From IMG/VR virus record IMGVR_UViG_3300042321_002027: a stretch of 64,000 nt of DNA. One strand, written 5' to 3'. The notes under the pieces are model-generated. The model was given only the letters and a program-made list of their open reading frames with translations. It was not told the DNA's origin and did no database searches. A program made the translations under genes and the position numbers. Position 1 is the stretch's first letter, and each line of letters begins with the position of its first letter. Shown here in pieces: positions 55,120-58,755 of this stretch. The DNA is from a virus.

Positions 55120-55554
55120 ATGAAAATTGAAGAAATACACGAGCTTTGGAAAGTTGATGCTGAAATCGACAAGACCGAGCCTGGAGAAGAGGCTCTTAAA
55201 ATAGCCAAGCTTCATCATAAATACTTCCAGATTCTTTCTTCAGAAAGACTTTCGCTTAGAAAATTCGAGTCTGATTTAAAGAAGCTTAGGTTAGACAAGT
55301 ACGAGTTTTACACTCAGGGTCCAAACGAAGAAACTCAAGAAAAGGGTTGGAAGCTTCCTTCTAAAGGTCTTATACTTAAAGCTGACATTCCAATGTATAT
55401 GGATGCAGACCAAGATATAATAAACCTTTCTCTTAGAATTGGATTGCAACAAGAAAAAGTAGAACTTCTAGAGTCAATAATCAAGACTATAATGAATAGA
55501 GGTTACAACCTCAAAGTGTATGTTGAATGGGTTAAATTTACAAATGGTTCATAA
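55120..55554 (+). CDS. uvsY: recombination mediator UvsY
   Basis: W..D..ID, I.KLH.KY, Y..AD.D, I..R.Y..K..VEW.KF. Confidence 0.88.
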   Translation: MKIEEIHELWKVDAEIDKTEPGEEALKIAKLHHKYFQILSSERLSLRKFESDLKKLRLDKYEFYTQGPNEETQEKGWKLPSKGLILKADIPMYMDADQDIINLSLRIGLQQEKVELLESIIKTIMNRGYNLKVYVEWVKFTNGS

Positions 55555-57101
55555 TGGAAACTGTAAGAATAAGAAAACTTAACGAAGTTTATAATAAGAT
55601 TGATTGTGAACCTTCTATAGCTATGGAATTAAATACGTATTTTACGTTTGAAGTTCCAGGAGCTAAATTTATGCCAGCTGTCCGAAACAAAGTTTGGGAC
55701 GGCAAAATAAGACTTTTCAATTTAATGACTTGCACTTTATACGGTGGATTAAATCGTTACGTTGAAGAATTTTGCAAGTCTAGAAATTATGAAATAGAAT
55801 ACGAAACAGATTTTAGTTCTGATGAATTTTCTTTGATTGAAGCTAAAAAGTTTATCGAAACTTTAAGTATACCAAACAAATTTAAACCAAGAGATTACCA
55901 GCTCGATGCTTTCGTACATGCAGTACGAGAACGTCGGGCTTTATTATTATCACCGACTGCCTCAGGCAAGTCATTTATTATCTATCTATTAATGAGGTAT
56001 TACAATGCTAAAACGCTTATTATCGTTCCTACGACGACTTTGGTTCACCAACTCGCATCCGACTTCGAAGAGTACGGATACTGCAGTGAACAATCAGATC
56101 ACAGACGCAGTGACTCAGGGAGCCGTAGGGTCGGAAGTGGTTCCGAAAACTCCTTCAGCAATGAACGGTCCAGCTGGACCATCGGGATCCACAAAATCTA
56201 CGCAGGGCAAGAAAAGAGGTCGCAAGCCCAAGTCACGATAACAACTTGGCAAAGCATCTACAAAGCACCGAAAGAATGGTTCGATCAATATGATGTAGTG
56301 ATTGGCGATGAGGCTCATAACTTCAAAGCCAAATCACTAACATCTATTTTGACCAAACTGGAAAACTGTCAATATAGATTTGGCTTTACTGGTACACTTG
56401 ATGGCACTCAAACTCATAAGCTCGTACTTGAAGGTTTGTTTGGTCCTGTCCGTAAAGTAACTACAACGGCAGAACTCATCGAGCAGAAGCACCTTGCCGA
56501 TTTCAGGATCAAGGCTATCGTGCTTTCTTACCCAGACGAGATTCGTCAGATGATCGCGAGGGCTGGAGATTACCAGTCCGAAATCGACTACATCGTTCGA
56601 CTCGAGGCACGTAACAACTTTATCAAAAATCTTGTACTCTCGCTTGATGGGAATACTCTTCTTCTCTTTCAGTTCGTTGATAAACACGGTAAAATCCTTT
56701 ACGATAAGTTAGAGAAAGAAACTAAAGATAGAAAAATATTTTTTATCCACGGCGGCGTCGATGGTGAAGAAAGAGATAAGGTAAGAGAAATTGTCGAGAA
56801 AGAATCTAATGCGATTATTGTGGCTAGTTTTGGCACTTTCAGCACTGGCATCAATATTAAAAATCTTCACAATGTTATATTTGCTTCTCCGTCTAAGTCT
56901 CGTGTAAGGAACCTACAGTCTATTGGACGTGGACTTAGAACAAGCGATACAAAGAAGTCAGCAACTCTATTTGATATTGCTGACGATATGACATGGAAAA
57001 CTAAGAAAAATTATACTCTGCTCCACTTCATGGAGCGTGTTAAGGTTTACAACGAAGAGAAGTTCGACTACAAGATCTACAAAGTATCATTAACGTTCTA
57101 A
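55554..57101 (+). CDS. uvsW: UvsW SF2 helicase with ~35-aa insertion
   Basis: WDGKIRLF, SPTASGKS, DEAH, GFTGTL, QSIGRGLR motifs. Confidence 0.95.
   Translation: METVRIRKLNEVYNKIDCEPSIAMELNTYFTFEVPGAKFMPAVRNKVWDGKIRLFNLMTCTLYGGLNRYVEEFCKSRNYEIEYETDFSSDEFSLIEAKKFIETLSIPNKFKPRDYQLDAFVHAVRERRALLLSPTASGKSFIIYLLMRYYNAKTLIIVPTTTLVHQLASDFEEYGYCSEQSDHRRSDSGSRRVGSGSENSFSNERSSWTIGIHKIYAGQEKRSQAQVTITTWQSIYKAPKEWFDQYDVVIGDEAHNFKAKSLTSILTKLENCQYRFGFTGTLDGTQTHKLVLEGLFGPVRKVTTTAELIEQKHLADFRIKAIVLSYPDEIRQMIARAGDYQSEIDYIVRLEARNNFIKNLVLSLDGNTLLLFQFVDKHGKILYDKLEKETKDRKIFFIHGGVDGEERDKVREIVEKESNAIIVASFGTFSTGINIKNLHNVIFASPSKSRVRNLQSIGRGLRTSDTKKSATLFDIADDMTWKTKKNYTLLHFMERVKVYNEEKFDYKIYKVSLTF
56005..56241 (+). CDS. 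putative overprinted 78-aa protein inside uvsW (+1 frame)
   Basis: TGAGGT SD 6 nt before the ATG; amphipathic N-terminus MLKRLLSFLRRLWF; basic tail KKRGRKPKSR; spans the uvsW insertion. Confidence 0.65.
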   Translation: MLKRLLSFLRRLWFTNSHPTSKSTDTAVNNQITDAVTQGAVGSEVVPKTPSAMNGPAGPSGSTKSTQGKKRGRKPKSR

Positions 57102-57161: not shown

Positions 57162-57710
57162 ATGGCAAAGCGAGTAGTAAATTATATCAATAACAAGACA
57201 CTTTATTCTGCAATGATTCAATATAAAAACTCAGTTGAAGAAGCAGTTAAGGAAAGCAGACAGAAACCAAAGGTTTCAGAGTACATCGGTCAATCAATTC
57301 TTTTAATTTGTAATAATCTGGCAAAGAAACCAAACTTTTCTGGATATACATATAAACAGGATATGATTTCGGATGGTATAATTGATTGTGTTGCTGCAGT
57401 TGATAATTTTAATCCTGACAAAACGAATAATCCATTCGCTTACTTTACACAGATTGCTTGGAATGCTTTTATTAGAAGAATACACAAAGAGAAAAAGCAA
57501 ACTTATATTAAGCATAAGAATTACGAGAACAGTGTTTTGTTAGAAGAACATTGGGAGCATTCTACAGGTCAATTAAAAACAAATGAATACTCAGATGAAG
57601 TGGTTAGAAACTTTGAAAATAAGTTGACTAAAACTAAAAAACCTAGTAAACTTAGTGGGATTGAAGTGTTTTCAGAAGAGTTGAATGATGAAGATAGCGT
57701 TAATAACTGA
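57162..57710 (+). CDS. gp55: late transcription sigma factor gp55
   Basis: YINNK, YIG.SI..I...LA.KPNF.GY, MISDGI..C, NPFAYFTQI. Confidence 0.95.
   Translation: MAKRVVNYINNKTLYSAMIQYKNSVEEAVKESRQKPKVSEYIGQSILLICNNLAKKPNFSGYTYKQDMISDGIIDCVAAVDNFNPDKTNNPFAYFTQIAWNAFIRRIHKEKKQTYIKHKNYENSVLLEEHWEHSTGQLKTNEYSDEVVRNFENKLTKTKKPSKLSGIEVFSEELNDEDSVNN
57624..57652 (+). promoter_or_regulatory. sigma70-like promoter TTGACT-N17-TAAACT for gp47/gp46
   Basis: Inside the 3' end of gp55; 17-bp spacer. Confidence 0.5.
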
Positions 57711-58755
57711 TACACATTGGGGTGTAAGAAACGACAATGTGGCATTCCTTGACAACAATAAAAAGTTTCTTGATGAAATCTTTTTTCCCTATATTGACAG
57801 GAACGGTATTAACACTGTTGTTCATCTTGGTGATCTTGTCGATAGGCGTAAGTACATTAACATAAACACTGCTCGTAGAATGAGGGTCGACTTTCTTGAA
57901 AAACTTAAAGAACGCAATCTCGAAGTTCATCTTATCGCTGGCAATCACGACACTCATTATAAAAATACAAATGAAGTTAACGCTATTAAGGAGCTTGTTG
58001 AAAATGCATACCCTTCTTTCAAAACTTACACCAAGCATGCCGAATCTGTCACTTTTGGTGGAGTACCTATTCTATTCATCCCTTGGATTTGCGATGATAA
58101 TCGGGAGCAAGTTCTAAATGCCATTAAAACCACCTCCAGCCAAATTGCCCTCGGTCACCTTGAGATCTGCGGCTTTGAAATGTTTAAAGGGTCTGTTGTC
58201 TCTCATGGTGATGATCGTAGCCTTTTCAATAAGTTTGATATTGTTATGTCTGGGCATTTCCATCATAGGTCCACTGATGGTCATATTGTTTATCTTGGTA
58301 GCCATGGCGAGTTTACTTGGTCTGACTTCGATGATCCACGAGGTTTTCATGTATTCGATACGGAAACTAGGGAACTAATCTTTATTGAAAATCCTTTTAA
58401 GATGTTCAAAAAGGTTTGGTATAATGATGCTGATGATGCTTTTCTTCAAAAGAAGATAGACTATAGTCAATATCGTGGTTGTATACTTAAAGTTATTGTT
58501 ACAAACAAAACAAACCACTATTGGTTCGATAAGTTTATTGAAAATTTAGAAAGCGAAAATCCTCTAGAAATACAAATAGTCGAAGATAATTTACACTTGA
58601 ATCTTGAAGATGATCAAGACATAGTTAACGAAGCTGAATCGACTCTTGATATTTTCAAGAAATATATCGAAAACTATGAAATGAAAAACATCAATAAAGA
58701 TAAGTTGACTAAAAAGATATTCGACTTATACAATGAGGCTATTAGTATAGTATGA
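57685..58755 (+). CDS. gp47: recombination nuclease gp47 (Mre11/SbcD-like)
   Basis: DTHWG, HLGDL.DRR, GNHD, GHLE, SGHFH motifs. Confidence 0.95.
   Translation: MMKIALITDTHWGVRNDNVAFLDNNKKFLDEIFFPYIDRNGINTVVHLGDLVDRRKYININTARRMRVDFLEKLKERNLEVHLIAGNHDTHYKNTNEVNAIKELVENAYPSFKTYTKHAESVTFGGVPILFIPWICDDNREQVLNAIKTTSSQIALGHLEICGFEMFKGSVVSHGDDRSLFNKFDIVMSGHFHHRSTDGHIVYLGSHGEFTWSDFDDPRGFHVFDTETRELIFIENPFKMFKKVWYNDADDAFLQKKIDYSQYRGCILKVIVTNKTNHYWFDKFIENLESENPLEIQIVEDNLHLNLEDDQDIVNEAESTLDIFKKYIENYEMKNINKDKLTKKIFDLYNEAISIV

Follow-up and report, generated by a model that had tools for sequence, protein, structure and literature searches.

The stretch of DNA analysed here comprises 64,000 nucleotides (nt) of the IMG/VR virus record IMGVR_UViG_3300042321_002027 and is referred to below as the window; positions without further label are counted from its first letter. 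It carries a T4-like replication and recombination block that consists of uvsY (55120-55554), uvsW (55554-57101), gp55 (57162-57710) and gp47 (57685-58755). Within uvsW, and one base out of its frame, lies an open reading frame (ORF) of 78 codons at 56005-56241, the first codon position of the nested frame being the second codon position of uvsW. A comparison with related sequences leads us to regard this ORF as probably a genuine overprinted gene in the +1 frame of uvsW, with uvsW presumably being the ancestral gene of the overlap. Furthermore, growth of the predicted nested gene would be the best explanation for a disordered loop of about 30 residues in the UvsW helicase. The features to which the text refers, with the evidence used for each of them, are the following.

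55554-57101, + strand: uvsW helicase gene, 515 amino acids (aa) (Pfam, match to structure 2OCA, AlphaFold2 model with a mean predicted local distance difference test score (pLDDT) of 80)
55993-55998, + strand: Shine-Dalgarno-like sequence TGAGGT, 6 nt before the nested ATG (read directly)
56005-56241, + strand: predicted nested +1-frame gene, 78 codons plus TAA (homologous ORFs, reduced synonymous variation)
56008-56046, + strand: predicted amphipathic basic helix at the N-terminus of the nested protein, LKRLLSFLRRLWF (AlphaFold2)
56082-56183, + strand: G+C-rich insert of the helicase (CSEQSD...WTIG, uvsW aa 177-210), in the nested frame the disordered S/T/P/G-rich middle of the predicted protein (alignments, pLDDT)
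56209-56238, + strand: basic C-terminal tail KKRGRKPKSR of the predicted nested protein, overlapping conserved UvsW YAGQEKRSQAQV (translation, alignments)
56239-56241, + strand: lineage-specific TAA stop (uvsW codons ACG ATA ACA), which shortens the predicted nested gene by about 19 codons relative to sister lineages
56242-56304, + strand: putative former C-terminal extension of the nested gene, past its stop (relaxed synonymous constraint in the window lineage)

Judged by its sequence, the uvsW product is a UvsW-type superfamily 2 helicase and a bona fide UvsW. It matches the Pfam families UvsW_N (PF21241), ResIII (PF04851) and Helicase_C (PF00271), all above their cut-offs, as well as the T4 UvsW structure 2OCA (E=1.4e-83), and it contains a Walker A motif (SPTASGKS, aa 133-140), motif Ia (IIVPTTTLV) and motif II (DEAH, aa 252-255). 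Compared to insert-free relatives (for example L007, one of the relatives described below) and to cyanophage UvsW, it is longer by 30-32 residues, which are located after YGY176 and before IHKIY and hence between motif Ia and motif II. Residues 179-220 are skipped in the HMMER alignment to 2OCA, and in the AlphaFold2 model of the whole protein residues 180-209 have no secondary structure and pLDDT values of 31-37, the insert thus being modelled as an unstructured loop. The G+C content is 0.52-0.55 at 56050-56249 and 0.26-0.41 in the flanks. A first-pass annotation of this DNA, made from the letters alone, had drawn attention to an unhelicase-like insert of about 35 residues between Walker A and DEAH, to a more CG-rich codon use of uvsW at this site, and to the 78-aa +1 ORF with TGAGGT 6 nt upstream of its start; all of these observations were borne out.

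The comparison covered about 110 distinct uvsW genes with 52-90% identity (designated L plus a number), which were obtained from IMG/VR and from metagenome contigs. The closest UvsW in a collection of phages shows about 52% identity, and the cultured phages are all distant. A homologous +1 ORF was found in 42 distinct uvsW genes, most of which are insert-free, and by this sequence evidence the nested gene is older and more widespread than the first-pass annotation assumed. Relative to the motifs of UvsW, these ORFs begin 5-6 codons ahead of IIVPT and finish 18-20 codons beyond TWQ. The length is 66-70 aa in most of them, 76-105 aa in the insert carriers and 122 aa in one group (L024:2443-2808, L055:2443-2808, L093:1943-2308 and L097:1943-2308) in which the usual nested stop is lost and the frame runs for 122 codons through the DEAH region. 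L010, whose hydrophobic nested product is encoded at 2446-2655, contains a second +1 ORF of 70 codons (2659-2871) directly after the first. On the ENA contig L163 (835-2522), uvsW is broken by a run of N that represents a scaffold gap, and it is for this reason that the nested ORF was called as a gene there: the gene caller skipped the helicase and reported the nested 76-aa ORF (P0001), which is the sole database record of the predicted nested protein.

In a tree of UvsW, the genes with the ORF fall within a single clade of 50 rows, 36 of which have it. Nested within this clade are groups that lack the ORF (L086/L087/L091, L082, L122 and a clade of 9 rows), and each of them is missing three features at once, namely ATG, GAGG and open frame. 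The ORF was not found in the cultured relatives checked or in outgroups: Melnitz, Mosig, S-SCSM2R and ACG-2014d have +1 stops at the site, and in DSL-LC02 the +1 frame is open there by chance and without a start.

The first line of evidence for a nested gene comes from its start signals. In the window, GAGG at 55994-55997 lies 7 nt before the nested ATG and is built from the uvsW Met-Arg codons ATG AGG. GAGG at such a spacing precedes only 12 of the 1204 ATGs on the + strand of the window, and GAGG, GGAG or AGGA is present upstream of 19 of its 49 long ORFs, signals of the GAGG type being those employed by this phage. Among the 42 ORF-bearing uvsW genes the start codon is ATG in 40 and GTG in 2, and it is kept even though the underlying UvsW residues vary (Asn-Ala, Tyr-Ala, Asp-Ala or Ser-Ala, encoded as AAT GCN, TAT GCT, GAT GCN or AGT GCT). 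GAGG is found 4 or 7 nt before the start in 36 of these genes. The Arg codon from which it is formed is AGG in 37 of them, while AGG makes up 13% of the Arg codons in the same genes.

The second line of evidence concerns synonymous variation in uvsW, which we scanned as codon entropy at columns with a conserved UvsW residue in 26 ORF-bearing genes, the subclade of the window being excluded. The ratio of observed to expected entropy is 0.34-0.44 at aa 145-178, 0.66-0.73 from there up to aa 253, and 0.8-0.98 elsewhere in the gene. This dip was not found in 22 uvsW genes that lack the ORF. Within the window's subclade, the pooled proportion of synonymous differences (pS) is 0.38 in the overlap compared to 0.68 in the remaining gene, and for the trio formed by the window, L003 and L163 the number of changes per codon at the wobble position (codon position 3) is 0.16 in the overlap and 0.54 elsewhere.

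A third line of evidence is provided by the insert itself, which is present at the same site in seven distinct genes (the window, L003, L004 (=L083), L005, L006, L084 and L163). Its size ranges from about 16 to 40 residues, with the length always changing in steps of three bases, and the +1 frame is free of stops in all seven carriers despite the differing indel lengths, whereas each of the two antisense frames with the same triplets is interrupted by stops in several of them. Changes were counted by parsimony on an alignment guided by the UvsW frame. Only 27% of the changes in the insert fall on the uvsW wobble position compared to 65% in the remaining gene (Fisher p=1.7e-9), which makes the wobble the least variable codon position of uvsW within the insert. 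Because the uvsW wobble is the second codon position of the nested frame, this low variability is the reverse of the pattern expected from coding in the uvsW frame and fits coding in the +1 frame. With L163 left out, the pairwise ratios of nonsynonymous to synonymous differences (pN/pS) in the insert amount to 0.2-0.6 for the +1 frame and 1-4 for the uvsW frame, and the +1-frame motifs NQITD(A/S)VT and GAVGSE(V/I)(V/I)PETPPA.NGP are retained across carriers while the residues of the uvsW frame change.

The insert was also examined for other origins and frames. An antisense ORF at 56115-56318, which shares its wobble position with the nested frame, was ruled out by stops inside the insert in the window, L003, L004 and L005. 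An origin by tandem duplication of the adjoining HKIYxGQEK segment was rejected as well, since local alignments of the insert with its flanks were not significant (best p=0.07); L005 has a 22-nt repeat with 77% identity. The split uvsW of Synechococcus phage ACG-2014d (KJ019130), considered as a similar insertion, turned out to be a tandem duplication of 95 nt at a different site. In KJ019130.1 (isolate Syn7803US94; L001:2260-2354) uvsW is annotated as two coding sequences, and the 95-nt duplication is perfect and is missing from the sister isolate KJ019129, from which the gene has one other difference. This duplication represents either a real recent event inactivating uvsW or an assembly artefact.

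The lineage-specific stop of the window offers a control for the extent of the constraint. At this site the window, L003 and L163 have ATA A, and L004, L084, L005, L006 and L007 have ATC A, their nested frame reading on to ...SQPGKVSTKRRKNGS.NT.S. Past the new stop, the wobble changes per codon in the window, L003 and L163 amount to 0.53, compared to a gene average of 0.54. In the same region of the sister clade with the long ORF the value is 0.53, compared to 1.36 elsewhere (Fisher p of about 0.04). The constraint thus appears to track the extent of the ORF, being gone past the new stop and kept in the long-ORF sisters, which is supportive, though not decisive. The checks on relatives that the first-pass annotation had proposed, namely conservation of the +1 ORF with its Shine-Dalgarno sequence and reduced synonymous variation over it, came out in favour of the gene; among the refuting findings that this annotation had named, a closed +1 frame in relatives that keep the insertion was encountered in none of the seven carriers.

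The predicted products of the nested ORF come in more than one form. The window product has 78 aa and a net charge of +11, and its maximal Kyte-Doolittle value over 19 residues is 0.33, so that no transmembrane segment is predicted. In the AlphaFold2 model (alignment A2), residues 2-14 form a helix with a pLDDT of about 78 and the remainder is disordered, which agrees with the amphipathic N-terminal helix that had been proposed from the sequence. A transmembrane helix of the E-like or holin-like kind is predicted for 32 of the 42 genes and is absent from the window product, from the rest of its subclade and from L030. These 32 genes encode a hydrophobic nested N-terminus with maximal values over 19 residues of 2.2-3.1 (for example MPVLLLLCQLLLLLVSLPVTLLIMVL...), followed by a basic polar tail, and the nested ORF of most relatives therefore is, as predicted from sequence, a Leu-rich single-pass membrane protein of about 68 aa with a basic tail. 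The N-terminus is hydrophobic because the wobble letters of motif Ia, which are rich in T, fall in the middle of nested codons and make these specify Leu, Ile and Val. These wobbles are C or G instead of T in the subclade of the window and, as a separate case, in the L030 group, and the products of these two groups are non-hydrophobic (0.2-0.6) and very basic (+9 to +15). The product of L030 (1747-1944; also found in L031, L032 and L063) is such a basic, non-hydrophobic protein (MMRRLSLLFRRLLWSIRW...) with a net charge of +15. The L030 lineage lies outside the window's subclade in the UvsW tree, and either convergence or recombination of the segment is the cause.

Two further suggestions of the first-pass annotation gained no support. 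The C-terminal tail KKRGRKPKSR, which had been likened to an AT-hook, has no GRP core, and its residues are largely set by conserved UvsW (YAGQEK...); the nested product matches no Pfam family at E<=1, AT-hook included. Likewise, nothing in the data speaks to a role as a tether between membrane and nucleic acid; the window product has no hydrophobic segment, although most relatives have one. What stands of that proposal is thus its core, a nested gene whose linker expansion would have lengthened the helicase loop, and this part has gained comparative support.

Several observations weigh against a nested gene. When the uvsW codons of the window were shuffled synonymously, its open frame alone proved only mildly unusual (P=0.037), and across the relatives the probability of an open frame was 0.01-0.1 per sequence. 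Codons for Leu, Ile, Val and Met are the source of +1 stops, through NTA|R and NTG|A. The shuffling null is anti-conservative: over a control region of uvsW (aa 391-451), 27 of 87 genes have an open +1 frame, compared to about 3 expected. The product is poorly conserved and has two very different forms, hydrophobic on the one hand and basic and disordered on the other, and neither a homologue nor a family of it was found in Pfam, in a set of 5.8 billion proteins or in the ESM Atlas, apart from the orthologous ORF of L163. Within its clade, the nested gene has disappeared on at least 3-4 occasions. Moreover, pairs that include the diverged insert of L163 give a pN/pS of about 0.6-1.7 in the +1 frame, and a tree-aware test, in which nested codon positions 1, 2 and 3 of the insert received 16, 9 and 17 changes, gave no significant periodicity (p=0.26). 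The truncation control amounts to one evolutionary event and 19 codons. Finally, the sole RNA contig related to this locus, described below, may show transcription of the uvsW gene of a relative and is silent on translation. Because the open-frame statistic is weak, the case for the nested gene rests on the start codon with its Shine-Dalgarno sequence, the synonymous constraint, the pattern of change in the insert and the truncation control; since the openness of a single sequence is only mildly unusual, significance was drawn from the relatives and not from the window alone.

As for the control region itself (window 56724-56906, helicase motifs V-VI), its +1-open stretches have heterogeneous starts and ends and no common start, and the synonymous entropy of uvsW is mildly lowered there (0.71-0.77). 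Its openness is probably an effect of codon choice at conserved residues, a second element being the alternative.

A first rival explanation is a chance ORF, the insert then being a tolerated low-complexity expansion of a UvsW loop that slippage or duplication, for instance, could have produced. Stops in the +1 frame are seldom generated by sequence rich in G+C or by Leu, Ile and Val codons of the NTT type, many genes have further stretches of uvsW that are open in a +1 or antisense frame and yet are no genes, and alternative-frame ORFs of 40-116 aa are common around the locus; the modest improbability of the open frame in the window and the lack of relatives of the product fit this explanation equally. 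Chance nevertheless leaves unexplained why the ATG is kept through changes of the underlying residues, why the rare AGG occupies the Shine-Dalgarno site, why synonymous variation drops two- to three-fold exactly over the ORF and in ORF-bearing lineages only, and why the uvsW wobble is the least variable position of the insert. We consider this explanation unlikely.

Synonymous constraint by itself does not separate coding from non-coding function (PMC8227390). The constraint alone would therefore fit equally well if uvsW contained a non-coding element (an RNA structure, a DNA site, or an internal promoter or other regulatory site, for instance) of which the open +1 frame is a by-product. That the strongest constraint is confined to roughly the first 100 nt of the ORF likewise speaks for such an element. 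It would, however, require neither an ATG with a well-spaced GAGG nor indels in multiples of three that keep the +1 frame open, and it does not predict that the constraint is lost directly after a new stop codon. In addition, there is no Rfam match, and the predicted RNA fold is not unusual (z=-0.86). We regard a non-coding element as distinctly unlikely. Programmed ribosomal frameshifting, by which a truncated N-terminal domain of UvsW would be fused to the +1 peptide, could draw on the rare AGG codon just upstream as a possible site of ribosome pausing. However, TAA and TGA stops interrupt the +1 frame just 3-4 codons ahead of the ATG, which leaves a stretch of about 10 nt without a slippery motif, and the codon before AGG varies (ATG, ACG, GTG or GCG) as would suit a Shine-Dalgarno sequence xGAGG and not a slip site, so that frameshifting is highly improbable. 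That the insert is foreign or mobile DNA unrelated to the nested gene (the remnant of an intron, an intein or a homing element, or a horizontally acquired segment) is hardly credible, for even though the G+C content rises sharply (0.52-0.55 compared to about 0.35) and close relatives differ in whether they have the insert, the segment measures only about 50-125 nt, varies in length in threes, resembles nothing else and has no terminal repeats except one 10-nt chance inverted match, and the rise in G+C starts upstream of it, at uvsW codons that are conserved, and there turns the encoded nested residues from hydrophobic into polar ones.

If the ORF is a gene, as we think probable, its history may be reconstructed as follows. 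The +1 gene would have arisen de novo in the ancestor of one clade of uncultured, mainly freshwater, T4-like (Kyanoviridae-like) phages, and it would be expressed by internal initiation on the uvsW mRNA at GAGG-N7-ATG. In the sub-lineage of the window, the hydrophobic core would then have given way to polar and basic residues, after which the disordered S/T/P-rich middle grew, presumably by in-frame indels, and later a new stop removed the last 19 or so residues of the nested protein. Because both genes share the same DNA, growth of the nested middle shows up as a surface loop of UvsW, and this loop may thus be a passive read-out of the nested expansion that is tolerated rather than needed by the helicase. 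As to function, the nested gene might encode a small accessory protein, the hydrophobic form of which would act at the membrane, while the basic form of the window may bind a membrane surface or a polyanion through its helix and basic tail.

A bolder and rather doubtful reading takes the nested gene to be a functional host-directed effector that originated within a core gene for replication and recombination of a large myovirus. In most of the clade it would be a single-pass membrane protein like E of PhiX174, involved in lysis, lysis timing or exclusion; in the lineage of the window it would have been re-invented as a soluble, basic, disordered binder of nucleic acid or of the membrane surface, its expansion remodelling the surface of UvsW. 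If so, one could trace here how a new gene changes class and drags the structure of an essential enzyme along.

With respect to its occurrence in the environment, exact copies of the sequence are present in metagenomes of lake water dated 2020 to 2024 (DNA runs, in which no population variation was seen). A contig of 925 nt from a freshwater metatranscriptome (run X20) contains the uvsW of a relative with less than 90% identity. In this contig 133 different letters replace the 94-nt core of the window's insert (56080-56175), and it therefore represents another insert variant. The recurrence in lakes makes environmental proteomic or transcriptomic tests feasible, and peptides of the window product in the +1 frame would be LWFTNSHPTSK, STDTAVNNQITDAVTQGAVGSEVVPK and TPSAMNGPAGPSGSTK.

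Elsewhere in the replication and recombination block, the stop of uvsY and the start of uvsW overlap as TAATG (55550-55556), which suggests translational coupling of the two genes. Downstream of uvsW, gp55 and gp47 share 26 nt (57685-57710).

In the literature collection searched, no paper was found that links uvsW with an overlapping gene. Well-supported overprinted genes come mainly from tiny viruses; they are rarely sought in large double-stranded DNA phages, and gene callers discard them. Overprinted genes as such are already known, and the interest of the present case is that the setting is a core helicase gene of a large phage and that the evolution can be traced. The relatives would provide a series for the maturation of a de novo gene, from its origin through the loss of hydrophobicity, the expansion of the linker and the truncation to several losses. 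At the same time, a puzzling disordered insert in a conserved helicase would be explained as collateral of selection in another frame, and insertions combined with odd codon usage in core phage genes could more generally flag hidden genes.

These properties can be compared with those of known systems. The uvsW gene of the window is a clear orthologue of T4 UvsW (PDB 2OCA, 1RIF), with the same domains and motifs; unlike it, the UvsW proteins of T4, of cyanophages, of Pelagibacter phages and of Methylophilales phages have no insert, and their genes have no nested ORF. The tail of the window product resembles an AT-hook motif in being a short, very basic stretch rich in K, R, G and P, but a contiguous Gly-Arg-Pro core is missing from it, and relatives do not retain this sequence, the corresponding stretch being KKKRAPRKS in L007 and KINKQINK in hydrophobic forms. 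In PhiX174, gene E lies in gene D, and T-rich wobble positions give rise to a Leu-rich N-terminal membrane helix that is followed by a basic C-terminal part (PMC8227390). Both here and in PhiX174, a small de novo gene is wholly contained in an older gene one base out of frame, and the hydrophobic form predicted for most relatives has the same layout as E, a membrane helix plus a basic tail. There is no sequence similarity between the two, and in the present case the host is a large T4-like double-stranded DNA phage and the host gene a helicase; the likeness is one of sequence layout only, and the window's version has lost the membrane helix. In hepatitis B virus, the spacer of the polymerase overlaps the preS region of the surface gene, and synonymous rates are reduced in the overlap (PMC8227390). 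Although that virus is of another type, the proteins are unrelated, and we are dealing with a short nested gene and a loop inside a RecA-like helicase domain, the two systems would have in common a disordered, indel-tolerant linker that serves as a passive read-out of selection in the overlapping frame.

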